From Candidatus Methylomirabilota bacterium (lineage in GTDB: Bacteria; Methylomirabilota; Methylomirabilia; Rokubacteriales; CSP1-6): DNA of 11,808 bases. Location: contig JBKPAK010000165.1 in the NCBI GenBank assembly GCA_046726415.1, positions 1-11,808 of the forward strand, given 5' to 3'. The stretch's first letter is position 1; each line of letters starts with the position of its first letter. A program made the position numbers and the translations under genes. Shown here piece by piece: positions 2-11,808 of this stretch. The notes under the pieces were generated by a model. The model did not search any database. It was not told where the DNA came from and was given only the letters and a program-made list of their open reading frames with translations.

Positions 2-946
2 ACGACCCTCCTGTCCGACATCGCCGCGCATCTCGGTGCGACGCCGGGGCCCGCCATCACGCTCGTGCCGGTGCCGTACCTCGTCTATCCGGGGATGCTG
101 GTCGAGATCGAGGCCGTCGCGATGGCGAGCGCCACCGGTGAACGGCTGCCTCGCATCGCGTCCGCTCCGCGCACCGTGGCCGGGCTGCCCGAGGCGTTCT
201 CGCAGGCGCTGCGGAGCGGCCAGATGATCCACGTCGGCGAGCAGACGGCGCGCGATGCGGCGGGCGGCCCGCCTACCGGCGACGTCGGCGCGCAGGCGGA
301 CGCGGCGATGGCGCGCCTGGCCGCGGTGCTCGGCGAGCTCGGGGCGCGCCTGGACGACGCCGTGAAGCTCAACATCTACTACGTCGGGGACGCGTCGCGG
401 GCCACCTGGCAGCGCGCCATGCAGGCCCTCGGCCGCCACTTCAGGGCGCCGGGGCCCGTGGTGACCGCGCTGCCGCTGCCGCGGCTCCCCGACGGGCTGC
501 TCCTGAAGGTGGACGTCGTCGCGATGCTCGGCGCGGACGGTGCGCGACTGCCCCGCACGGCCGCGGCGGTTCCGGGCCACTGGGACTGGGGCCTCCCGCT
601 GCCGTTCAGCCAGGGGCTCCGCTGCGGCGAGATGATCTTCGTGAGCAGCCAGAGCGCGCACGACGCGCGCGGCCACGTCGTGCACGGGGGGCAGCTCGTG
701 CCGCAGACCCACACCGCGATGGAGAACGTCCGGCGCGTGCTCGGCGCGCTCGGCGCCACCATGGACGACGTGGTGAAGATGAACGCGTCCTTCAAGAGCG
801 GCGGCACGGCCGAGGAGCAGAACGCCAACCTGCGCGTCCGGACGGCGTGCTTCGCGGATCCGGGCCCGGCATCGACCGGGATCTCCTATCCCTACCTCGC
901 GCTCGACGGGCTGATGATGGAGGTCGAGGTCATCGCGATGCGCTGA
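2..946 (+). CDS. Multi-domain Rid/YjgF/YER057c family protein (at least 3 tandem Rid domains), 5'-partial
   Basis: The frame is open from base 2 (TTLLSDIAAHLGATPGPAITLVPVPYLVYPGMLVEIEAVAM...) to TGA 944-946. Rid C-terminal motifs recur three times about 135-137 aa apart (LVEIEAVAM, LLKVDVVAM, MMEVEVIAM). Rid N-terminal motifs FSQALRSGQMIHVG/FSQGLRCGEMIFVS and DDAVKLN/DDVVKMN are present. Confidence 0.85.
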   Translation, partial: TTLLSDIAAHLGATPGPAITLVPVPYLVYPGMLVEIEAVAMASATGERLPRIASAPRTVAGLPEAFSQALRSGQMIHVGEQTARDAAGGPPTGDVGAQADAAMARLAAVLGELGARLDDAVKLNIYYVGDASRATWQRAMQALGRHFRAPGPVVTALPLPRLPDGLLLKVDVVAMLGADGARLPRTAAAVPGHWDWGLPLPFSQGLRCGEMIFVSSQSAHDARGHVVHGGQLVPQTHTAMENVRRVLGALGATMDDVVKMNASFKSGGTAEEQNANLRVRTACFADPGPASTGISYPYLALDGLMMEVEVIAMR

Positions 947-1003
947 GCACGGTCGGGAGCGGTCAGATTATCTGCTCCCCCGACACACCGTGGAATTTCG
1001 CCC

Positions 1004-1033
1004 TTGACCGCTTCGTCGTCCGCAGGGTATGAG
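1004..1033 (+). promoter_or_regulatory. Possible sigma-70-type promoter for the grdB-like operon
   Basis: TTGACC (1004-1009), 18 nt spacer, TATGAG (1028-1033), in the 237-nt gap before grdB. The -10 match is imperfect. Confidence 0.25.
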
Positions 1034-1170
1034 GGCACGAAGGACGGCGTCCCCGATGTTCACTGAGAAGCTTGCCCGTGGCCCGAGCATCGACCGCGCC
1101 TAGACTTCGACCGCCTCGAGCGCGCGCCGGCGACCTCGTCTCGGGCTTCGCCAGGCCCGCGTCGCCGCCG

Positions 1171-1178
1171 TAAGGAGG
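1171..1178 (+). promoter_or_regulatory. Shine-Dalgarno sequence of the grdB-like gene
   Basis: TAAGGAGG lies 5 nt upstream of the GTG start at 1184. Confidence 0.85.
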
Positions 1179-1183
1179 CAGTC

Positions 1184-2503
1184 GTGCTCAGGGTGGCGCA
1201 CTACCTGAACCAGTTCTTCGGCCAGATCGGCGCAGAGGACAAGGCGTCGGTCGGGGTCTCCTTCCGCGACGGCCCGGTGGGCGCCGGCGCTCTCCTGCAA
1301 CAGCGGCTGGCCGGCACGGGCACGATCGTCCAGACGGTGATCTGCGGCGACACCTTCTTCGCCGAGCACGCCGACCAGGCGCTTCCCCTCATCCTCCAGC
1401 GGATGCGCGAGCTCCGGATCGACCTCTTCGTCGCCGGCCCCGCCTTCAAGGCCGGCCGCTACGGGATGGCCTGCGGGCGCGTGTGCGCCGAGGTGGAGCG
1501 CGTGCTCGCCATCCCCACGGTGACCGGGATGCACCCCGAGAACCCCGGCGTCGATCTCTTTCGCAGGCAGACCCTTGTCAGCCATGCCGGCCCCACCGCC
1601 GCGAGCATGGCGGAGGACGTCGAACGCATGGCCCGCCTCGCCCTCAAGCGCGCGGAGAAGCAGCCGCTGGCGGCGCCGAGCGAGGAGGGCTACGTCCCGA
1701 GGGGCCGCGTGAAGAACGTCCTCCTGGAGCGGCGCGCCGTCGACCGCGCCGTCGAGATGCTCCTGAAGAAGGTGTCTGGCGAGCCGTACCGGACGGAGAT
1801 GTCGCTCCCGCGCTATCACCCGGTCACGCCGTCGGCGCCCATCCGGGACCTCGGGCGTGCGACGATCGCCCTGGTGACCGAGGGCGCCGTGGTGCCGAAG
1901 GGCAACCCCGATCGCCTCGAGTCGTGGACCGCGACGAAGTTCGGCGCCTACAGCCTCGACGGACTCGCCGACCTCTCGCCCGAGACCTTCGATTGCATCC
2001 ACGGCGGGTTTGACCTGACCTTCGCCAAGGCCGATCCCGACCGCATCGTTCCGCTCGACGTCATGCGCGAGCTCGAGCGTGAAGGCCGGATCCGCCGGCT
2101 CTTTCCCTACCTGTACGCGACGTGCGGCGGCGGCACGCCGATGGACACCGCGGAGAAGCTCGCGCAGGGCATCTTCGCCGATCTCGAGGCGAGAGGAGGC
2201 GCCCACGGCGTCATCCTCACCGCCACCTGAGGGACGGGCACTCGTTGCGGTGCAACGATGGCGCGCGAGCTCGACCGACTGGGTCTTCCCGTCGCGCTGA
2301 TCACGTGTCTCGTGGACGTCGGCGCCCTGATCGGGGTGAACCGCATCGTGGCCGCGCCGGCGATCGTCCACCCGCTCGGCCAGCCCTCGTTGCCCCTCGC
2401 GGCCGAGCGCGCGTTCCGCCGCCGGGTGGTGGAGCGGGCGCTCCAGAGCCTGCAGACCGACGTGGGAGGTCCGCAGGTGTTCCGGCTGGAGACCTCCCGA
2501 TGA
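1184..2503 (+). CDS. grdB: Glycine/sarcosine/betaine reductase family selenoprotein B (GrdB-like), 439 aa with Sec at codon 349 (UGA 2228-2230)
   Basis: Family motifs HYLNQFFGQIG, ICGDTFF, AGPAFKAGRYGMACG, VPKGNPDRLES, HGGFD, DPDRIVPLD. ORFs 1184..2230 and 2258..2503 share a frame and join as VILTAT-U-GTGTRCGATMARELDR, matching the GrdB Sec motif (canonical TST-U-GTCTRCGATM). The C-terminal HPLG motif follows. Confidence 0.93.
2242..2258 (+). promoter_or_regulatory. Bacterial SECIS element (selenocysteine insertion hairpin)
   Basis: Perfect inverted repeat TCGTTGC-GGT-GCAACGA starting 11 nt after the UGA, with a GGU apical loop. Spacing and loop resemble the E. coli fdhF SECIS. Confidence 0.8.
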
Positions 2504-3771
2504 AGCTGACCGTGCACGACTTCGACGTGCGATCGCTCGGGTTCGGACCGAGGACCGGCCTCGACGGCCACCACCTGACGGTGAACCCAGACGAGCTGAT
2601 CGAGCACCTCGCCCGGGATCCCGCGCTCGCCTCGATCGACGTCCGCCTGGCGCGGCCGGGCGAGCGGACGCGGATCGTCAACGTCCTGGGCATCACGGAG
2701 CCGCGCGCCAAGGTCGGCGACGACGTCGCTGACTTTCCCGGCGTGCTGGGCCCCCTCAGGCTCGCGGGCGTCGGGTCGACGAACGTGCTGCGCAACGTGG
2801 CGGTGATCGAGGCGGGATTCGTGAAGCCGTCGAAGGACGGCGATACCCGACAGGGTGTCGTCGACATGACGGGTCCGATCGCCCGGTTCACGCCGTTCTC
2901 GAGAACGCAGAACCTCGTGCTCCTTCCCTTCCCCGCACCCGGCATCGACCGCATCGACTACATCCGCGCCGTGAACCGGGCGGGGCTCCAGGCGGCCGCC
3001 CAGCTGGCGCGACGCGCGACCATCGATCATCCGGTCGCTCCGGACGCGACCGAGGTCTACCAGCTCGACCCCACGCGCAGAGCCGGCGGAGGGCTTCCGA
3101 GGATCGCCTACATCTGCCAGGCGTTCTGGCTCGCGGACGGATGGGAATCGTTCGTCTACGGCACCAGCATGAAGGACATCCTCCCCACGGTCCTGCACCC
3201 CAATGAGATCCTCGACGGGGCCCTCGTGAGCTGCAACTACGGCTCGCCTGCCAGCATCCGGAACCCCACCTACGCCCACCAGAACAACGCCGTCATCCGG
3301 ACGCTCTACGAGCTCCACGGCAAGGCGCTGGACTTCGCCGGCGTGGTCCTGACGCCGCAGCCGTCCGTGGGAGACGTCAAGGAGCGCTGCTCGCTGCTCG
3401 TCGCCAAGCTCGTGAAGTACGCGCTCGGCGCCGACGGCGTCGTCCTGAGCAAGGAGTCGGGGGGGCACGCCGACGTGGACACGATGCTGAACTGCCGGAA
3501 CTGCGAGGCGCTGGGCGTGCGCACGGTGCTGATGATGGACCTGCTCGAGGGCGACGCGCTGCTGTGCGCCACGCCCACGGCGGACGCGATCGTGTCGCTC
3601 GGGAAGTCCACCGAGAGGGTCAGGGGTGAGCGGGTCGACGCGGTGCTGGGCGGCAGCACGCTGGCGGGTGTGAACGGGCCCATCGACGGCGAGATCGAGA
3701 TCCCCCTCTCGATGATCTCCTGCTCCACGTCGCTCTTCGGGGATACCTACCTGTCGACCGTGGAGACCTGA
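2500..3771 (+). CDS. Glycine/sarcosine/betaine reductase component B proprotein (GrdE/GrdG/GrdI-like), 423 aa
   Basis: The true start is ATG 2500 (ATGA overlap with the grdB stop; SD GGAG 2488-2491), not 2122. Family motifs ARPGERTRIVNVLGITEPRAK, GVVDMTGP..RFTPFS, PTVLHPNEILDGA, NPTYAHQNN, LGADGVVLSKESGGHADVD, ADAIVSLG. Confidence 0.88.
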   Translation: MKLTVHDFDVRSLGFGPRTGLDGHHLTVNPDELIEHLARDPALASIDVRLARPGERTRIVNVLGITEPRAKVGDDVADFPGVLGPLRLAGVGSTNVLRNVAVIEAGFVKPSKDGDTRQGVVDMTGPIARFTPFSRTQNLVLLPFPAPGIDRIDYIRAVNRAGLQAAAQLARRATIDHPVAPDATEVYQLDPTRRAGGGLPRIAYICQAFWLADGWESFVYGTSMKDILPTVLHPNEILDGALVSCNYGSPASIRNPTYAHQNNAVIRTLYELHGKALDFAGVVLTPQPSVGDVKERCSLLVAKLVKYALGADGVVLSKESGGHADVDTMLNCRNCEALGVRTVLMMDLLEGDALLCATPTADAIVSLGKSTERVRGERVDAVLGGSTLAGVNGPIDGEIEIPLSMISCSTSLFGDTYLSTVET

Positions 3772-3782
3772 GCCCCGACGCC

Positions 3783-6263
3783 ATGGAGAGTCGCGCGCGA
3801 CTGGTGGTGATCGGAGCTGGCATCGTGGGGACGGCGGCCGTCTACCACCTCACCCGCTTCGGCTGGCGGGACATCGTCGTCATCGAGCAAGGACCGCTCC
3901 ACGACACCGGCGGCTCGAGCGGGCACGCGCCGGGTCTCGTCTTCCAGACCAACGCGTCGAGGACGATGACCGAGCTGGCGAAGGAGACGGTGAAGCTGTA
4001 CGGCGACCTCGAGCTGGACGGGCAGCCGTGCTTCTACCCGGTCGGGAGCCTGGAGGTCGCCTGCACGCGCGAGCGCCTGGAGGATCTGAAACGCCGCCTC
4101 GGCTACGCGCGGTCGTGGGGACTCCCCGCGGAGCTGCTGACGCCGCGCGAGACGCGCGCCAGGATCCCCCTCCTCGACGAGGCGCGGATCCGCGGCGCCT
4201 ATTGCGTTCCCGGCGACGGACTCGCCAGGGCGGTGCGCGCGGCGGAGGCCATGACGCGCGAGGCGCAGCAACGCGGCGCTCGCTTCCATGCGCGCACCAG
4301 GGTCACCGGCATCGAGGTGGTGAACGGCCGCGTGCGCGCGGTGGTGACGTCGCGGGGACGCATCGAGACCGAGCAGCTGCTCGTCTGCTGCGGGATCTGG
4401 GGCCCGCTCGTGGGACGCATGGCCGGCGCGTCGATCCCGCTGATGCCGATGCAGCACATCTACGCCCGGACCGCACCGATCCCCGCGCTGGCCGGGGAGA
4501 CGCGCGAGATCGTCCATCCGGTGCTGCGCCATCAGGACCGCTCGATGTACTTCCGGCAGCATGCGGACTGCTACGGAATCGGGTCCTACCGGCACGAGCC
4601 GCTCCTGGTCGAGGCGACCGAGATCCTGAGCCACGAGGCGGCGCCGGTGGCGCCGGCCCAGGTGGCGTTCACGCCGGAGCACTTCGCGGCCGCGCACGCC
4701 GCCGCCGTCGAGTTGCTTCCCGCGCTCCGGGGCGCCGAGGTCGCGCACGCCTTCAACGGGATGTTCTCGTTCACGCCCGACGGCTTTCCCCTCCTCGGTG
4801 AGGCCATCGACGTGCGGGGGTTCTGGGTCGCCGAGGCGATCTGGATCACCCACGCGGGCGGCGCGGCGCGCGCCGTCGCCGAGCTGATGCACGAGGGAGT
4901 CGCCTGGGTCGACCTGCGGGAGTGCGCCATCGACCGCTTCCACGCGCACGCGCACACCCGCGCGTACCTGCGCGCGCGGGGCGCGCAGCAGTACCGCGAG
5001 GTCTACGACATCATCCACCCGCGGCAGCCCATCGAGCACCCGCGCGGCCTGCGGCGGAGTCCGTTCCACACCCGCCTCGAGGAGCAGGGCGCGCTGTTCT
5101 TCGAGTCCGCCGGCTGGGAGGTGCCGCAGTGGTTCCATGCCAACGAAAAGCTGCTGGCGGGGCGAGCCTGGCCGGAGCGCTCCGGGTGGGAGAGCCGCTA
5201 CTGGTCGCCGATCGAGGGTGCCGAGCATATTGCCACTCGCGAGCGCGTCGGTCTCTTCGACCTGACGCGCTTCGTGAAGATCGAGGTAGCGGGCGCAGGC
5301 GCGCTCGCCCTGCTCGAACACCTCTGCGCGAACCGGATCGACGGGCGCGTGGGCAAGGTCGTCTACACCTCGATGCTGAACACCCGAGGCGGGATCGTGT
5401 GCGACCTGACGGTGACGCGACTGGCCGGGGACCGCTTTCTCGTCTTGACCGGCGCCGCCTCGGGCATGCAGGACCTCGCCTGGATCCGCCATCACGCGGC
5501 GAGCCGCGACGGCGTGACCGTGACCGACATCACCTCGGCGTACTGCGGGGTCGGGCTCTGGGGGCCCATGGCGGGACACGTCCTGCGCGAGGTCTCCGAC
5601 GACGACGTCTCGACCTTCGACTATTTCACGGCGAGGCGGCTGGCGGTGGGCAGTATCCCGGCGCTCGCGCTGCGTGTCTCGTACGTCGGCGAGCCGGGCT
5701 GGGAGATCTACTGCGCAACCGAGTACGGCGCGGGACTGTGGGACGCGCTGTGGAAGGCGGGACAGCCCTTCGGGATGGTCGCCGGGGGGAGCGGCGCCTT
5801 CGATTCCTTACGCCTCGAGAAGGGATACCGGCTCTGGGGCGCCGATCTCCACACCGACTACAACCCCTACGAGGCAGGTCTGGGGTTCGCGGTCAAGCTG
5901 GACAAGGGCGACTTCATCGGCCGCGAGGCGCTCACCCGCGTGAAGCAGCGGGGCCTCACACGCCGGCTCTGCTGCCTGACCTTCGACGATCCCGGTGCCG
6001 TCGTCGTCGGCAAGGAGCCGGTCCTCGACGGCGACACGCCGCTCGGCTACGTGACGAGCGCCAACTACGGGTACACGGTGGGCCGGGCGATCGCCTACGC
6101 GTATCTGCCGATCGATCACGCCACCGTCGGCAGCAAGGCCGAGGTCCAGTACTTCGATCGGCGCTACCGCGCGACTGTCACCGACGAGCCGCTCTACGAT
6201 CCGAAGGGGCTTCGCCTGCGGCGATCGTCGGCCCGGTCTCCTTCGACCAGGCCTGGGCCATGA
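3783..6263 (+). CDS. N,N-dimethylglycine oxidase/dehydrogenase-like flavoprotein (DAO FAD domain + GcvT folate-binding domain), 826 aa
   Basis: Rossmann VVIGAGIVG; GGSSGHAPGL with His at position 48 (the covalent-FAD His48 of Arthrobacter DMGO); PMQHIY and LRHQDRSMYFR (His/Tyr dyad region); GMFSFTPDGFP; GcvT motifs GGIVCDLTVTR, SYVGEPGWEIY, DSLRLEKGYRLWG, EPLYDPKG. Confidence 0.9.
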   Translation: MESRARLVVIGAGIVGTAAVYHLTRFGWRDIVVIEQGPLHDTGGSSGHAPGLVFQTNASRTMTELAKETVKLYGDLELDGQPCFYPVGSLEVACTRERLEDLKRRLGYARSWGLPAELLTPRETRARIPLLDEARIRGAYCVPGDGLARAVRAAEAMTREAQQRGARFHARTRVTGIEVVNGRVRAVVTSRGRIETEQLLVCCGIWGPLVGRMAGASIPLMPMQHIYARTAPIPALAGETREIVHPVLRHQDRSMYFRQHADCYGIGSYRHEPLLVEATEILSHEAAPVAPAQVAFTPEHFAAAHAAAVELLPALRGAEVAHAFNGMFSFTPDGFPLLGEAIDVRGFWVAEAIWITHAGGAARAVAELMHEGVAWVDLRECAIDRFHAHAHTRAYLRARGAQQYREVYDIIHPRQPIEHPRGLRRSPFHTRLEEQGALFFESAGWEVPQWFHANEKLLAGRAWPERSGWESRYWSPIEGAEHIATRERVGLFDLTRFVKIEVAGAGALALLEHLCANRIDGRVGKVVYTSMLNTRGGIVCDLTVTRLAGDRFLVLTGAASGMQDLAWIRHHAASRDGVTVTDITSAYCGVGLWGPMAGHVLREVSDDDVSTFDYFTARRLAVGSIPALALRVSYVGEPGWEIYCATEYGAGLWDALWKAGQPFGMVAGGSGAFDSLRLEKGYRLWGADLHTDYNPYEAGLGFAVKLDKGDFIGREALTRVKQRGLTRRLCCLTFDDPGAVVVGKEPVLDGDTPLGYVTSANYGYTVGRAIAYAYLPIDHATVGSKAEVQYFDRRYRATVTDEPLYDPKGLRLRRSSARSPSTRPGP

Positions 6264-6333
6264 TCGAGCTGGGCCCATGGGGAATGCCGAGTGCGACAGA
6301 TCGTGGCGCTCGCCGCTGCAACCCGAGAAGCGC

Positions 6334-6444
6334 TCAGCCGACGAACACTCCGCCGGCGGGGTGCAGGAGCTCGCCGGTGAAGTACGACGCGTCGTCCGAG
6401 GCGAGAAAGAGCGCGGTCGCCGCGATCTCCTCAGGCTTGCCGTA
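6334..6444 (-). pseudogene. 3' remnant of a short-chain dehydrogenase/reductase (SDR) gene
   Basis: Translates to YGKPEEIAATALFLASDDASYFTGELLHPAGGVFVG*, a typical SDR C-terminus with GC-rich codon usage. Resemblance stops abruptly at ~6445, where GC drops; no Rossmann or YxxxK part upstream. Confidence 0.8.
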
Positions 6445-6471
6445 ATTCTCCACGAGTACCATACGAATGGG

Positions 6472-7186
6472 ATGGCCCTCACCGCGACGAGTTATGCAGG
6501 TCAACTTCACTTCTTCGCCAACGTGATCGGCAATTTCGCAATCGATCATGGTTGGTGGGACGGTCAGTGGAATTTTGAGGATCTCGACGTTGACGAAGGT
6601 AACGATCCATCGTCAACTGCGATAGTCGGGAAAAGGCTGTGGGTGGTTGGTTCGGGAAGGTTTGATCCCTACTATCCTAAACTTCGTTGCGGCGTGTGGG
6701 ATCAAGGAGCTTGGCATTTCGCGACACTGGACCAAGGGAACGGCACTAACGGCGATTGTGTTTCAGCTGCCTACGGAGGGCAGTTCCACGTTTTCAGCCG
6801 CCGAGGTGGCCCAGTAGACCCGATCCCCGGAATACGGCACGGCTGGTGGGACGAGGCAAGACCTCTTCAGCCGCTCGGGCCTGGCGGTTGGCACTTCGAA
6901 ACGATGGACGAGCAAGAATTCGGCAGCGCCGCGGGCAAGCTCGCGGTGGTTAACTACGGTGCGCAACTTGACCTTTTTGTTCAAGGAGCTAATCCGGGCG
7001 GTGGGTTCGTGTTGCGGCATCACTCGTGGAACGGAAATCGTTGGAACGCGGAGTCACTCGACCAGGGAGTCAGCGAAGCAAGGGGCGTTGACAGCAGCAA
7101 CCTTAGGCAATCAGCTACACGTCTTAAACTTGGGACGTGAGGCCGGAGGCGCGCCGGTACTCCGACACGTGCTCTTTACACCGTAG
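6472..7186 (+). pseudogene. Trp-rich tandem-repeat beta-propeller (fungal fucose-lectin/PLL-like) protein with a frameshift at ~7063-7085
   Basis: Four repeats of A..Y.GQLH(V/F)F...(I/L)RHGWWD..W.F..LD type in the frame of ORF 6277..7140 from ATG 6472. A fifth partial repeat, ALTAATLGNQLHVLNL...VLRHVLFTP*, continues in the +1 frame (ORF 6959..7186). The region is visibly lower in GC. Confidence 0.6.
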
Positions 7187-7449
7187 CCGTCGGCATTGGC
7201 GCGCGGCGGATCCGCGCACGCAGACCCCCGCCATACCTGGCCGACCGACCACCCTCAAAAGGGGGCCCCATCCGACGCGGTGCGGCGCTGACGTAAGCCG
7301 ATCAAACGCGTACATCTGAGCCGCGACGAGTCCGAGACCGCCGACCGCCGCTCAGGCCCGTTTCCTCCCAACTTCTGCGCTGGATTAGCAACCAGCGGGC
7401 GACGCTAACCGACTTGATTGCACGGTGGCCTGACAACGCGCCAGCCGGC

Positions 7450-8499
7450 CTATGAGCTGGACGAGTCGAGGCCGTAACGCTTGATCTTCTCCAGCAGCGT
7501 CTTGTAGCTGATGCGGAGACGGTGGGCAGCCTCGGTGCGGCGCCAGTGCACCTGGGCGAGGGTCCGCTTCAGCGCCTCGCGCTCCACGATCTCGACGGCC
7601 AGCCGGGTCATCTCCTTCAATCCCGGGGACTCGTCGGCCAGCAGGGCCTCGGCATCGGGCAGCACCGCCGGCCCGTTCCTGGGCGCCGCGGGAGGCGGCT
7701 CGGGATCGTCGAGCTCGGCCACGACCGACTCGGTGCCGAGCACGACGATGCGCTGGATGACGTTCTGCAGCTCACGGACGTTGCCAGGCCAGGGGTAGCG
7801 CTGCAGCCGTTCGAGCATTGCCGGAGAAACCTGCCACGGTCCGCCGCCATGCTGTACTCGGTACAGGGTCAGGAAGTGCTGGACAAGGATCGCGATCTCC
7901 TCCGGGCGCTCCCGCAGGGGCGGAACTCGAAGGTGCACCACGTTCAGCCGATGGAAGACGTCCTCCCGGAAGCCACCCTCGACGACGTACCGGGCGAGAT
8001 CCCGATTCGTCGCCGCGATGACGCGGACGTCGACGCGGATGTCATGCTCGCTGCCCAGGCGGGAGAACTCGTGGTCCTGGAGCACCTGCAGCAGCTTCGC
8101 CTGCACGGAGAGCGGCATTTCGCTGATCTCGTCCAGGGAAATCGTGCCTCGATGCGCCTGCTCGAACTTGCCGCGCTTGGGATGATCGGCGCCGGTGAAC
8201 GCGCCGCGTTCGTAGCCGAAAAGCTCGCTCTCGAGAAGCGTGAAGGGGAGCGCCGCGCAGTTGACCTTCACGAACGGCCCGTCGTGTCGGCGAGAGCGGT
8301 GGTGGAGCGTCCGCGCGACGAGCTCCTTGCCCACGCCGCTCTCGCCCGAGATGAGCACAGTGACGTCGGTCGGCGCGACGCGCGTCACCGCCGCATCGAT
8401 GAGGCGCATGCTGGCGCTGTTCACGAGCGCCTCGTAGCCATTCGGTGCGTCCTCGCCCGAGGAGCCCATTTCCTTCCCGTTTCCCAAATTCTCGGACAC
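7450..8499 (-). CDS. Sigma-54-dependent transcriptional activator (bEBP: AAA+ and Fis-type HTH, no N-terminal sensor domain), 349 aa
   Basis: Walker A GESGVGKE, PFVKVNCAAL, ESELFGYERGAFTGA (GAFTGA at 8188-8205), Walker B-like ISLDEI, QAKLLQVLQ, RVIAATNRDL, WPGNVRELQN, C-terminal HWRRTEAAHRLRISYKTLLEKIKRYGL. The exact start is uncertain. Confidence 0.92.
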   Translation of the reverse strand: MSENLGNGKEMGSSGEDAPNGYEALVNSASMRLIDAAVTRVAPTDVTVLISGESGVGKELVARTLHHRSRRHDGPFVKVNCAALPFTLLESELFGYERGAFTGADHPKRGKFEQAHRGTISLDEISEMPLSVQAKLLQVLQDHEFSRLGSEHDIRVDVRVIAATNRDLARYVVEGGFREDVFHRLNVVHLRVPPLRERPEEIAILVQHFLTLYRVQHGGGPWQVSPAMLERLQRYPWPGNVRELQNVIQRIVVLGTESVVAELDDPEPPPAAPRNGPAVLPDAEALLADESPGLKEMTRLAVEIVEREALKRTLAQVHWRRTEAAHRLRISYKTLLEKIKRYGLDSSSS

Positions 8500-8771
8500 C
8501 GCCGCGCTGATCCGGAAACATAAAACCCCAAAATGCTAAGGAAAAGGTTTACCCAGGGAGGCAGCGTCTTGCGCGAAGGCCACCGTCAGCGCCGGCCACG
8601 AAGACGGCAAGCTAAGCCTTGGGAGGCCGGCCTTAGCGCCTCCGCTGGACGTCAGCCTACTGTTCTCGGAAGAGGGGAACGGTTGCCCGCCGTCGCCGGC
8701 GTCTAGATTTCGTGACTCATGTTCGTTCACGCCTCGGAGCCAAGGTTCGGGACTTGTGCCTGCTCGAGCGC

Positions 8772-8821
8772 GACTTGGGCGCCAGCAGGGCCCTGAGCTT
8801 CGGTGTGAGGTAGACCACGCG
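8772..8821 (-). pseudogene. Possible tiny tyrosine-integrase remnant
   Basis: Reads RVVYLTPKLRALLA, then (A)QV after a 1-nt shift. This resembles the ...GRVVYLTPELKALLAAQV... segment following the catalytic Lys in some phage-type integrases. Very short and recognised from memory only. Confidence 0.25.
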
Positions 8822-9020
8822 ACGTCGTGATCGAATCGGGGTAGCGTGCTCCGCTCTGAGGATGCCGATCCTCGCTAACGGCTGCTCAAAGCTATGCGCA
8901 AGCGGCAATCCGGCAAGTGTCCGCTCCCGAGCTCGGAAGACGCACATTGGACGGCTAGAGGTGGGCAGCATGCGAGGTTGCGACGACGACCATGCGCGGC
9001 GAAATAGCCACCACCGCTCG

Positions 9021-9390
9021 TCAGGCACCCGTGTTCCCCGCATGTTCTACGGCGTCCGCGACGAGTTGGGCCATCGTCGCAAGCTGAACGGTTTTTTGAA
9101 TACCCCGAAGAATCCTTCGCTCACGATTAGTGGATTGCCCGAGATCAGAATTACTGGGAGCTGACGCCGGTTCGCCGCAGCGAATCGAGAACATCTCTCC
9201 CCGAGAAGCCGGGCATCTGCATATCGACGATGATGACGTTCGGTTGGAAGATCGGCACCGCCTGGAGCGCTTCGGCGCCCGTCTCGACCGTGCTCACTTC
9301 ATAGCCCTGACCGGCTAGGAAGTCACGCAGCAGCGCAAGAACCCGAGGCTCATCGTCGGCAATCAGCACGCGCCTGGAGGCCGGATTCAT
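9021..9390 (-). pseudogene. Single-domain response regulator (receiver) with two frameshifts
   Basis: From ATG 9390: MNPASRRVLIADDEPRV...VIIVDMQMPGFSG. After a shift near 9157-9160 it continues PVILISG...VFKKPFSL, and after a second shift near 9072-9078 MAQLVADAVEHAGNTGA* (stop 9021-9023). DD, phospho-Asp, Ser and KP landmarks are all recovered across frames. Confidence 0.8.
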
Positions 9391-9667
9391 AGCCTCAGTC
9401 CGTTCAGGCGCACCGCGATTCCCGTAGCACGACGCCGGTATTCCTGCCGGGCGATCTGACAACGTATGTCCAGTGCGCGGCGAAGCAGCGGGTTCACTCT
9501 AGGCCTTGTCCTCGACGGGGGGCGCGCTGGCTGGGCTGGGTGGGTTCATGGTGGCCGGCTGTCCCGCTGATCTTACCCGCATCGTCGCTGGCCGGCCCTC
9601 CGTGGCCCGGCCCACGGTCATCACGGTGGTTGTTGAACCTTACTTCGTATGCGTCGAGAATCTGGCC

Positions 9668-11808
9668 ATGACGGCTGAGTCCCTGCGGAGCTGGCACCGA
9701 CGGCTCCGGCGGCTGGTCACTACGGTCCCGTTCCTCGTCACCCTCGGCGTGGTCGGGGTCCTCGTTGCGGCCTACACGCTCGCCGGCTTTCTGCTCGTGC
9801 CCCGGCTGATCGCGACCTACGTGCCCCGGTACGTGCAGGAGCAGCTCAAGCGGCGGGCGGAGATCGGGGAGGTCCGGCTGAACCCGCTCCTGTTCAAGCT
9901 GGAGATCAAGCACTTCCGACTCCAGGAGGCCGACGGGCGGCCGCTGCTCGGCTTCGACCGGCTCTTCGTCGACTTCGAGCTGTCGAGCCTGTTCCGGAGG
10001 GCGTGGACCTTCGCCGAGATCCGGCTCGAGGCGCCTCGCCTGGACGTGGTGCTGGCCCGGGATGGCCGGCTGAACGTGGCGGACCTGCTCGACGCGCTGC
10101 CGCAGGGCGAGCCGGCCGCGCAGCCGACACCGACGACCCCGTCCCGGATGCTGCTGCAGCATGCGCTCGTGAGCGGGGGTGCGCTGTCCTTCACGGACCT
10201 CTCGGGCCGAGCGCCGCAGAAGGCGACCGTGGAACCGATCAACGTCGAGCTCCGTGACGTCACGACCCTGCCCGGGCGCCGCGGTCCCTACGCCATCTCC
10301 GCGACCCTGACCGGTGGCGGTGTCGTGGCCTGGGAGGGCGAGGTGTCCCTCGTTCCGCTCGGCTCCACCGGCCACCTCGCCCTGCGCGGCTTTCCGCTGG
10401 CCACCGCCTGGCGCTTTGTCCAGGATGACGTCGCCCTCGCCGAGCCGGCCGGTCGGCTGGACGCGGAAGTGCGCTATCAGCTCGCCCATCGGGACGGGGC
10501 GACGTCGCTGAAGGTGGACGGCATCGATGTCACGGTGGCGGGCCTCGCCCTCAGCGAGCGCACGGCGAAGACGCCGCTGCTCGCGCTGGAGACGATCCGC
10601 CTGGCCGGCGGGCGTGGCGACCTCACCGCGCGCGAGCTGACGGTGCCGGAGATCTCGGTGAGCCGCGGCCGCCTCGCGGCGACCATGGCGCGAGACGGCA
10701 CCGTGAACTGGCAGAGACTGATAGCGACACCGGCCGCCGCTCCGACCGCTGGCGCGATCCCGGCGTCGCCGGCTCAGCCGGCGGCCACACCGGCTGCCAG
10801 CCCCTGGCGGCTGGCGCTCGACAAGGTGCGGGTCGAGGAAGTCGCGCTGGCCTTCGTCGACCAGAGCCGCACGGCTCCGCTCGAGGTCAGCGTCGGCGAT
10901 CTTACCGTCGATCTCGCCGCGAGGCTCGAGCATGGGCCTGCGGGCCTGACCGGCGCGGCGGAGAACCTGGGTGTGAAGCTCGCCCGAGTGGCAGTAGGCG
11001 AGGCCAGCGGGGCGAAGGCGCGCCTGCTCTCATTGGATCAGGTCTCGGTTGACGGCGGTCGTGTCGATCTGGGAGCACAGCACGTCGCGGTCTCCCGAAT
11101 TGCGGTGACGGGCGGGGCGACGACGGTGGTCCGTGCCGCGGACGGCTCGATTCCGCTCGTGACGATGCTAGGCTCCGCGGATCAGGGCAAGCCCGCGCGC
11201 CCGTCGGCCGCCCGGCCCGCTCGCGCCCCCGCCGCGCCGGCGGCCAAGCCCTGGACCGTCGCGCTGGAGAGGTTCGACCTCGCCGATCACCGCCTCGCCA
11301 TCGCCGACCGGAGCGTCACCCCCGCCGTTCAACTCGACCTCAGCGGGATCAAGGTGAGCGCCCGGGAGCTGCGCAGCGACGGCAAGAAGCCCGTCCCATT
11401 CGACGCGAGCTTCCGTGTCACCCAGGGAGGCCGCTTCACGGCGAAGGGGCGGGTGGCACCGGACGGCACCGCGGCGGATGCGACGCTGACCGTCGCCCAG
11501 CTCGCCCTCACCCCGACCCAGCCATACGTTGCGAAGAACGCCGATGTTCTGCTCCGCTCGGGCGAGGTGTCCACCGCCGGCCGGCTGACCTACCGCGCCG
11601 GCCGCGACCGCGCCACGGTCACGTTCACCGGCTCGGCCGACGTCGATGGTGTGAACGTGGTCGAGTCGGCCGGCGGAGAGCCCGTGGTGTCCTGGAAGAC
11701 GCTGCACGTCGACAACCTCCGGTTCGGGCTGGCCCCCGATCGGCTGGAGATCGCCGAGGTGAGGCTGACCGGGCTGGATGGAAAGCTGGTGATCTTTCAG
11801 GACAAGAG
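9668..11808 (+). CDS. DUF748 / AsmA-like domain protein with N-terminal membrane anchor, 3'-partial
   Basis: ATG 9668: MTAESLRSWHRRLRRLV, TM helix PFLVTLGVVGVLVAAYTLAGFLLVP, then EIGEVRLNPLLFKLEIKHFRL...LLGFDRLFVDFELSSLFRRAWTFAEIRLEAP...DGRLNVADLL. The same frame is in use at the window end (RLTGLDGKLVIFQDK). Pro/Ala-rich linkers ending PW separate repeated beta-rich units. Absent from the ORF track because there is no stop in the window. Confidence 0.85.
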   Translation, partial: MTAESLRSWHRRLRRLVTTVPFLVTLGVVGVLVAAYTLAGFLLVPRLIATYVPRYVQEQLKRRAEIGEVRLNPLLFKLEIKHFRLQEADGRPLLGFDRLFVDFELSSLFRRAWTFAEIRLEAPRLDVVLARDGRLNVADLLDALPQGEPAAQPTPTTPSRMLLQHALVSGGALSFTDLSGRAPQKATVEPINVELRDVTTLPGRRGPYAISATLTGGGVVAWEGEVSLVPLGSTGHLALRGFPLATAWRFVQDDVALAEPAGRLDAEVRYQLAHRDGATSLKVDGIDVTVAGLALSERTAKTPLLALETIRLAGGRGDLTARELTVPEISVSRGRLAATMARDGTVNWQRLIATPAAAPTAGAIPASPAQPAATPAASPWRLALDKVRVEEVALAFVDQSRTAPLEVSVGDLTVDLAARLEHGPAGLTGAAENLGVKLARVAVGEASGAKARLLSLDQVSVDGGRVDLGAQHVAVSRIAVTGGATTVVRAADGSIPLVTMLGSADQGKPARPSAARPARAPAAPAAKPWTVALERFDLADHRLAIADRSVTPAVQLDLSGIKVSARELRSDGKKPVPFDASFRVTQGGRFTAKGRVAPDGTAADATLTVAQLALTPTQPYVAKNADVLLRSGEVSTAGRLTYRAGRDRATVTFTGSADVDGVNVVESAGGEPVVSWKTLHVDNLRFGLAPDRLEIAEVRLTGLDGKLVIFQDK

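Follow-up and report, generated by a model that had tools for sequence, protein, structure and literature searches.

A GrdB/GrdE-like selenoprotein pair encoded directly ahead of a dimethylglycine oxidase-type gene in a Methylomirabilota bacterium

Among the selenium-dependent glycine, sarcosine and betaine reductases, several substrate-specific B complexes can serve one common reductase, as reported for E. acidaminophilum and Cloacibacillus (PMC10838667, here and below according to the portion of that text available). Self-cleavage and pyruvoyl formation in the GrdE family depend on two cysteines, which GrdI and FarE lack (PMC10838667). The betaine reductase GrdH/GrdI of Eubacterium (Peptoclostridium) acidaminophilum joins a selenocysteine (Sec)-containing GrdB-family subunit to a GrdE-family subunit that is not a proprotein, and uses a shared GrdA and protein C. 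The fluoroacetate reductase FarB/FarE of Cloacibacillus porcorum MFA1 is a precedent for a B module in which both motifs are altered, as FarB lacks the CxxC and FarE the two cysteines; many B paralogues, FarB/FarE among them, supply one GrdA/GrdC, and the pair is encoded in its own small operon away from grdA (PMC10838667). Here we describe a B module, GrdB'/GrdE', that is encoded directly ahead of a gene for a dimethylglycine oxidase (DMGO)-type flavoenzyme on an 11.8-kb contig (JBKPAK010000165.1, hereafter C165) of a Methylomirabilota genome (GCA_046726415.1; 7.6 Mb, 67.5% G+C, 98% complete). The entire contig was analysed and is referred to as the window.

The genes in question, with a multi-Rid gene upstream, are as follows:

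2-946, + strand: multi-Rid (YjgF/L-PSP) gene, cut at its 5' end by the contig start (Pfam PF01042, two stretches)
1184-2503, + strand: GrdB-like predicted selenoprotein, 439 aa plus stop, Sec349 (Pfam GRDB, TIGR01918, third-position G+C)
2228-2230, + strand: in-frame UGA read as selenocysteine, residue 349 (homology runs on in frame)
2242-2258, + strand: hairpin resembling a selenocysteine insertion sequence (SECIS-like), 7-bp stem UCGUUGC/GCAACGA, loop GGU
2500-3771, + strand: GrdE-like subunit, 423 aa, without both self-cleavage/pyruvoyl cysteines (Pfam Gly_reductase)
3783-6263, + strand: DMGO-type flavoenzyme, 826 aa (DAO, FAO_M, GCV_T and GCV_T_C domains; PDB 1PJ5)

We give roughly even chances to the reading that GrdB'/GrdE' is one of four substrate-specific B modules that feed a shared GrdA/GrdC, and that it is tied to N-methylglycine catabolism. 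Shared use of GrdA and GrdC, co-transcription and the substrate of the pair are what we infer; the intactness of the genes, the signals for Sec decoding, the family placement, the partners encoded elsewhere in the genome and the physical linkage, seen in several soil populations, were read directly.

The tight linkage described by the initial annotation was confirmed throughout, including the multi-Rid gene upstream. The grdB' frame has a GTG start at 1184 behind a Shine-Dalgarno sequence (AAGGAGG, 1172-1178), and its true stop (2501-2503) forms an ATGA overlap (2500-2503) with the ATG of grdE' at 2500. Only 11 nt separate the grdE' stop (3771) from the ATG of the DMGO gene (3783) on the same strand. 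The three genes form a tight, intact unit and are probably co-transcribed. The Rid gene, which ends 237 nt before grdB' starts, may be a separate transcription unit. A scan of the window for sigma-70 promoters and terminators gave nothing useful and no terminator-like site between grdE' and the DMGO gene. The sigma-54 promoter pattern matched the window six times (9.3 expected), never upstream of grdB'. Real genes were picked by third-position G+C (GC3) as the coding signal, which is 0.84-0.93 for the pair; within grdB' it stands at 0.93 upstream of the UGA and at 0.91 downstream. No GrdA, GrdC, GrdD or thioredoxin was found among the window open reading frames (ORFs) with a coding GC3 signal, as had been claimed at the outset.

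The UGA at 2228 is a selenocysteine codon, as homology continues in frame, GC3 stays high after the UGA, family members are truncated at this point in databases, and Sec machinery is encoded in the genome. GrdB' matches Pfam GRDB (PF07355) at 1.8e-130 over model positions 2-347 of 347, and read through the UGA it scores 473 bits on TIGR01918 (cut-off 65) over positions 1-430 of 431. Both the full-length GRDB domain and the C-terminal part after Sec are thus present. Database entries for 72 of the 81 family representatives of 330-460 aa end exactly before the Sec position, and the family is therefore almost always a selenoprotein truncated by gene callers. The hairpin begins 12 nt after the UGA, and the GrdB paralogue on contig C21 has the same stem with the loop GGC.

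Both subunits carry altered motifs, as the initial annotation had noticed. The Sec motif of GrdB' is TATUGTGTRCGA, i.e. UxxGxxC, with Gly in place of the first Cys of UxxCxxC, and in GrdE' Y247 and S252 occupy the columns of the canonical cysteine pair (SGNCVSACDKN). These changes do not set the locus apart in the way first supposed. UxxCxxC is kept in 80 of the 97 GrdB examined and the first Cys is lost in 15 of 97, among which seven (GrdB' and six others) have the identical UGTGTRC. In an alignment and tree of 123 GrdE rows (GrdE', its three paralogues and 119 best homologues), 109 are without the cysteine pair: 14 have the second Cys alone and 95 have neither, including GrdE' and all three paralogues. 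The pair occurs in the other 14 rows, which form one clade (support 100). Cys245 of GrdE' sits two residues before the canonical site, at a place where residues other than G, S, P, A or N occur in at most 5 of the 123 rows; it is a possibility that this is a shifted self-cleavage site.

Assignment to a described specificity was attempted with the NCBIfam models, and all cut-offs were missed. GrdB' scores 418 bits on the GrdB (glycine) model (cut-off 602), 470 on GrdF (sarcosine; cut-off 800) and 433 on GrdH (betaine; cut-off 775). GrdE', which matches Pfam Gly_reductase (PF09338) at 4e-98 over model positions 1-421 of 426, scores 246 bits on GrdG (the sarcosine partner; cut-off 780) and 200 on FarE (NF053623, the fluoroacetate partner; cut-off 675). 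On GrdG, the cysteine-pair clade reaches 528-647 bits, and no other representative tested exceeds 427; glycine- and sarcosine-type partners therefore belong in that clade and GrdE' does not. Curated cut-offs are out of reach for the wider branch too, both for the 75 GrdB cluster representatives scanned (one is GrdH-like, at 579 bits and truncated, and one is near GrdB/GrdF) and, on GrdG and FarE, for the 23 GrdE representatives. No true GrdH/GrdI pair is among the loci collected, the best being 56% identical to the GrdH-like representative, and no solved structure matching GrdB or GrdE by sequence was found. A FastTree phylogeny of 96 GrdB sequences, which has long branches and is without characterised GrdF/G, GrdH/I and FarB/E sequences, pairs GrdB' with a copy from genome G168 (support 96, both branches long) and places it in a 20-row set, 13 of which are without the first Cys. 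The separate standing proposed for GrdB' and GrdE' was borne out, as neither nests in the characterised glycine, sarcosine, betaine or fluoroacetate types, and judged by sequence the pair appears to lie outside every one of them.

Compared with GrdH/GrdI, GrdB' falls well short on the GrdH model and has lost the first Cys of the Sec motif, the genes run B then E, and no GrdD was found in the genome. The window pair likewise misses the FarE cut-off. Unlike FarB, GrdB' retains one motif Cys, and next to it are genes for a flavin demethylase and for a Rid protein, where FarB/FarE have an antiporter and a radical-SAM enzyme. With the clostridial GrdB/GrdE and GrdF/GrdG the window shares both Pfam families at full length and the Sec position, with a candidate hairpin in the corresponding place. 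However, it stays under all equivalog cut-offs and outside the cysteine-pair clade, and in the clostridial systems E normally precedes B. The loci of other Methylomirabilota and Deltaproteobacteria, ordered C-A-E-B or E-B-C-A, belong to the same branch and have a non-cysteine GrdE, often UGT[G/S]TRC, GrdC next to GrdA, and no GrdD. The window departs from these loci in having its B pair apart from GrdC-GrdA and next to a gene for a dimethylglycine oxidase.

Genes for the missing partners are encoded elsewhere in the genome. Both GrdB and GrdE are encoded four times in full, in pairs throughout, on contigs C165, C9, C172 and C21. All four GrdB paralogues contain Sec, and none of the four B modules has the glycine/sarcosine cysteine pair. 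GrdB' is 52% identical to the C9 paralogue, 48% to that of C172 and 40% to that of C21. On C21 the order is GrdB-GrdE-GrdC-GrdA, followed by an OprB porin. GrdA (with Sec and one TGA; C21:9849-10340, 188 bits against a cut-off of 130) and GrdC (C21:8386-9846, 604 bits against 450) are each present in a single copy. The thioredoxin system was judged by TrxB, which is encoded on C233 (403 bits against 343). The search for selenocysteine genes that had been suggested found SelA and SelB (adjoining, on C313), SelD and tRNA-Sec. The SelD gene (C223:11994-12938) has an in-frame TGA, and SelD of this genome is probably itself a selenoprotein. The C9 and C172 pairs adjoin Opp-type ABC importers and amidohydrolases; near the C172 pair, whose GrdB motif is UxxCxxG, are also a cyclase, a DUF1989 gene and an NMT1-type binding protein gene. 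Weak, partial matches to the C-terminal half of GRDB were seen at C156:55541-55894, C78:1306-1728 and C49:3035-3337 (E 1e-7 to 3e-4), and these may be PrdB-like or other short relatives.

The initial annotation had called the window pair an orphan, or a stand-alone component B, and this could not be upheld, given GrdA and GrdC beside the C21 pair, TrxB and the full Sec machinery in the same genome, and same-motif relatives directly beside GrdC-GrdA. A complete grdACD-trx locus elsewhere was found in part: GrdA, GrdC and TrxB are there, and GrdD was not found. A truly new system, with a component B that is independent of GrdA/GrdC and uses another acceptor or partners the oxidase directly, would agree with a window that encodes none of GrdA, GrdC, GrdD and Trx, with a genome in which no GrdD was found, and with the Gly in place of the first Cys of UxxCxxC, a motif thought to contact GrdA (PMC13188914, in the portion available). 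However, GrdA and GrdC are encoded in the genome, five or more other genomes encode a GrdB with the identical UGTGTRC immediately next to GrdC-GrdA, and several B proteins sharing A and C is the known rule (PMC10838667). We consider this explanation improbable. The strongest support for the reading in which GrdB'/GrdE' uses a shared GrdA/GrdC is the same-motif GrdB beside GrdC-GrdA, together with the presence of exactly one copy each of GrdA and GrdC alongside four B pairs.

The relatives of the pair are distant. Some form of GrdE occurs in 61 of the 251 genomes of the phylum, among which the best relative of GrdE' is 44-45% identical, and the same ceiling holds among 5.8 billion proteins. The best GrdB relative in the collections searched is 50-51% identical. 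A Rokuibacteriota GrdE and a Methylomirabilia GrdB are among the relatives matched. Loci from GTDB genomes and metagenomes were gathered via the GrdB alignment, as the 14-sequence GrdE alignment contains no stretch conserved enough to search with; scans with GrdE-protein patterns found no relative in the genome or metagenome contig collections. Together with 14 loci of the phylum, 80 GTDB and 80 metagenome loci make up 174 other GrdB loci, many with short flanks.

Loci of the phylum are usually ordered GrdC-GrdA-GrdE-GrdB or GrdE-GrdB-GrdC-GrdA. Those of Deltaproteobacteria run GrdE-GrdB-GrdC-(Trx)-GrdA without GrdD (in L093, Trx lies between GrdC and GrdA and TrxB is downstream). GrdD was found at none of the 14 phylum loci, nor at the deltaproteobacterial loci that have GrdC and GrdA (L057-L068, L093, L102, L123 and L141 are the loci behind this observation); it is present in 48 of the 80 GTDB loci and 25 of the 80 metagenome loci. 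The glycine/sarcosine cysteine pair is also absent from the 14 related phylum loci examined. The UGTGTRC motif occurs directly beside GrdC-GrdA in G037, G035, G067, G056 and a deltaproteobacterial metagenome-assembled genome (MAG). This variant appears, from gene content, to be a GrdD-less, non-pyruvoyl glycine/sarcosine/betaine reductase system that is common outside clostridia. The B-to-E order, which had been singled out as reversed, recurs at C21, G163, G226, G168 and L136, and is not seen in 79 of the 80 GTDB loci and all 80 metagenome loci. Closest to GrdB' is the G168 copy, which also has the B-to-E order and is followed by GrdE and then by a gene for an oxygenase with Rieske [2Fe-2S] and LigXa_C domains, cut by the contig end, of a family of oxidative demethylases (L030, G168:C393, 2-1057, - strand). 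Neighbours of other related B modules are Opp- and NMT1-type ABC importers, amidohydrolases, RuBisCO, fumarate reductase, and TctC with a proline-racemase family gene. The GrdE-GrdB-GrdC-GrdA genes of L063 (G067:C18, 10703-14760) directly adjoin those of both RuBisCO subunits, large and small, of a LysR regulator and of a CbbX-like AAA protein.

The 826-aa protein encoded after grdE' is predicted to be of the DMGO type and, by alignment, a close relative of Arthrobacter globiformis dimethylglycine oxidase (1PJ5, 1PJ6, 1PJ7, 3GSI). It has the same four-domain architecture and matches 1PJ5 with 810 bits (E 1.8e-242, residues 2-813 aligned to 2-829), far above its score against mammalian DMGDH (432 bits). 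Residues aligned to H48, H225 and Y259 of 1PJ5, which we take to be the flavin attachment site and the catalytic pair, are kept. Unlike the A. globiformis enzyme, it is encoded behind a selenoprotein reductase pair. DMGO-type genes are frequent in the phylum, 130 of whose 251 genomes give a match of E 1e-100 or better; the unpublished genome G217 is counted in. Among the matches listed, no DMGO-type gene lies near a GrdE gene in these genomes. The nearest relative in the phylum (70% identical) is on a 3.9-kb contig of G250 without a visible Grd gene; it was dropped as linkage evidence because this contig is short and internally rearranged.

Judged by a full-length paralogue, the Rid protein is a fusion of three domains, of which the ORF at 2-946 encodes two in full and one as a tail. 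Elsewhere in the genome, a 411-aa full-length triple-Rid paralogue lies about 3 kb from a DAO-family flavoenzyme gene (C20:22381-23616 and 26411-27592), with two opposite-strand genes in between; no Grd gene accompanies them. An association of Rid proteins with flavoenzymes may recur without Grd genes.

If the pair acts as a B module tied to N-methylglycine catabolism, Sec349 of GrdB' would attack the alpha-carbon of X-CH2-COO-, expel the amine X and form a carboxymethyl-selenoether. The carboxymethyl group would be handed to selenoprotein A, for which the genome has one gene (on C21), and processed by GrdC (C21), and thioredoxin reductase with NADPH would re-reduce the system; the final acetyl-phosphate step would be unaccounted for without GrdD. 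The substrate would be an N-methylated glycine, because the pair is translationally coupled and a DMGO relative follows after 11 nt: either sarcosine, made by the oxidase from dimethylglycine, or dimethylglycine or betaine itself. The operon logic favours sarcosine, the product of the oxidase. The lack of a pyruvoyl site speaks for dimethylglycine or betaine, since neither needs a Schiff base. Profile scores decide nothing among the three.

Several results weigh against this reading. The GrdD model (NF040747) finds in the 98%-complete assembly at best a PlsX-like gene on C92, with 26 bits against a cut-off of 350, and a verified GrdD of a Tepidanaerobacteraceae MAG (564 bits), used as tblastn query, returned the same weak match and no other. 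GrdD is likely absent from the genome, and the acetyl-phosphate end step therefore cannot run as described. The acetyl-thioester cysteine is assigned to GrdD. The position of GrdE' outside the clade that holds the sarcosine- and glycine-type partners, with its low GrdG score, speaks against sarcosine, and betaine gains no support, as the betaine-model score of GrdB' is below its sarcosine-model score and both are far under cut-off. The Arg of the 'PAR' motif is essential in RidA, and in both complete Rid domains of the window it is replaced by Ser or Val (PDB alignments 2dyy and 3r0p). The RidA model (TIGR00004) was not reached either (77 bits against 106), so that a role as imine deaminase in the pathway is unsupported. 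The stability of the hairpin (2242-2258) is not above that of shuffled sequence (z -0.68) and its stem overlaps the conserved R-C-G-A-T codons; on its own it therefore counts for little. A recurrent link to DMGO or Rid genes, which the initial annotation had suggested surveying, was sought with tblastn in the fetched flanks, counting hits of at least 60 aa and E 1e-6 or better, and seen at none of the 174 other loci (0/80 GTDB, 0/80 metagenome). One weak exception among the 14 phylum loci is a 29%-identical DAO-domain gene beside the C21-type locus of G163. The neighbourhood is thus unique, and functional coupling is argued from the spacing. A DMGO linkage that other genomes do not conserve was one of the outcomes named by the initial annotation as speaking against its proposal. 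Two genomes of the same genus (G163, 95% complete, and G164, 72% complete) have no syntenic region, only paralogue-level matches; their C21-type loci are 84-89% identical to that of this genome.

These last results would be expected if the neighbourhood were accidental, with a B module for an unrelated substrate behind which a recent rearrangement placed the oxidase, and perhaps the Rid gene. The very diverse contexts of B modules in this branch, the second multi-Rid gene near a DAO-family gene without Grd genes, and decayed genes in the right half of the contig (the tail of a short-chain dehydrogenase/reductase (SDR) gene and a broken NtrC-type regulator), which suggest a region in flux, point the same way. 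Such an accident fits less well with an 11-nt same-strand gap without a terminator-like site, with the oxidative demethylase-family gene that also follows the closest GrdB relative in G168, and with an arrangement that stays stable in soil populations from three or more other studies. We regard it as unlikely, yet as an explanation to be taken seriously.

Twenty public runs, which come from 14 studies and are almost all labelled soil metagenomes, contain parts of the window, and eight of the 20 contain at least half of the sampled words; no RNA run is listed among them. Four of the runs, each from a different study, include long contigs that span the junctions and differ little from the window. 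Rid-GrdB-GrdE is bridged in runs X2 (1-2980), X5 (444-3317) and X3 (801-2034), and GrdE-DMGO in X3 (2931-5014) and X5 (3346-4782); one X2 contig extends about 1 kb past the left end of the window. Among the strain differences listed inside the three genes, 22 of 29 are on third codon positions (GrdB 5/5, GrdE 8/13, DMGO 9/11); none is at the UGA, and both that follow it are on third positions. The bridging contigs are strains of one population. They rule out an assembly chimera and demonstrate purifying selection rather than conservation in evolution. The Rid-GrdB-GrdE-DMGO arrangement is real and maintained, and the DMGO link is known in this species only.

This distribution of differences bears on two further explanations. 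Long branches in both trees, lost motif residues and pseudogenes nearby could mean that GrdB'/GrdE' is a decaying or non-functional duplicate. However, the frames are open, the profile matches are full length, GC3 is 0.84-0.93, and the listed differences concentrate on third codon positions, including the two after the UGA; we find decay scarcely credible. Alternatively, the pair could act mainly as a thiol-dependent selenoperoxidase that removes H2O2 from the neighbouring oxidase. DMGO-type oxidases release H2O2. Going by the title of Groebe et al. 2007, GrdB reportedly has a peroxidase activity that fragments of GrdE stabilise. That part of the argument hangs on a title, purifying selection maintains GrdE', a full substrate-binding partner, and no such pairing is seen at the 174 other loci, which makes a peroxidase role very improbable.

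The remainder of the window contains two further features:

7450-8499, - strand: sigma-54 activator fragment (GC3, Pfam)
9506-11806, + strand: DUF748/AsmA-like gene running off the contig end (GC3, Pfam)

The 1.2-kb gap at 6264-7449 contains an SDR remnant (6334-6549, - strand) of which only the last ~40 residues are left (adh_short_C2 197-235 of 236), and has no coding signal in its remainder. A 115-bp stretch at 6330-6444 resembles the ends of SDR genes in the same genome (C128, 96.5%; C270, 84%) and in a congener (93%). It was considered as a mobile repeat and ruled out, being the conserved C-terminus of SDR genes. An NtrC-type regulator is apparently broken (7450-9462, - strand), with a receiver fragment at 9151-9462 (Response_reg 1-68 of 111) and the sigma-54 AAA+/HTH ORF at 7450-8499 separated by about 650 nt without coding signal. 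Summed contig depth in the soil runs is 5 to 40 times higher at 7487-8668 than in the rest of the window, likely because the conserved sigma-54 AAA+ domain draws contigs of many organisms. Rfam gave no match in the window.

Two features are new here: the joining of a B pair with a dimethylglycine oxidase, and the presence of four B modules alongside a single GrdA/GrdC. In a literature search made up mostly of titles and the starts of abstracts, with subscription journals outside its scope, we found no description of a GrdB-DMGO link, of a GrdD-less system or of four B modules around one GrdA/GrdC, and no paper that treats Rokubacteria together with glycine reductase. The phylum is known for its many selenoproteins. 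One Methylomirabilota MAG has 63 predicted selenoprotein genes according to a review (PMC13188914, in the portion available).

That a bacterium of an aerobic soil phylum splits the C-N bond of a methylated glycine by selenium, without a pyruvoyl group or GrdD and in one operon with a folate-dependent demethylase, is, taken as a whole, doubtful. If true, one substrate pool would be disproportionated, in a Stickland-like manner, into a C2 unit, methylamine and a C1-folate unit. The gene grdB serves as a marker for glycine reductase and the reductive glycine pathway, and Methylomirabilota transcripts have been read in this way (PMC11784365, in the accessible part). Because neither the cysteine pair nor GrdD was found in this genome or at the 14 phylum loci, grdB-based annotations in this phylum may name the wrong reaction. 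For this large, soil-abundant branch without a known substrate, the tie to a dimethylglycine oxidase would provide a short list of candidate substrates.

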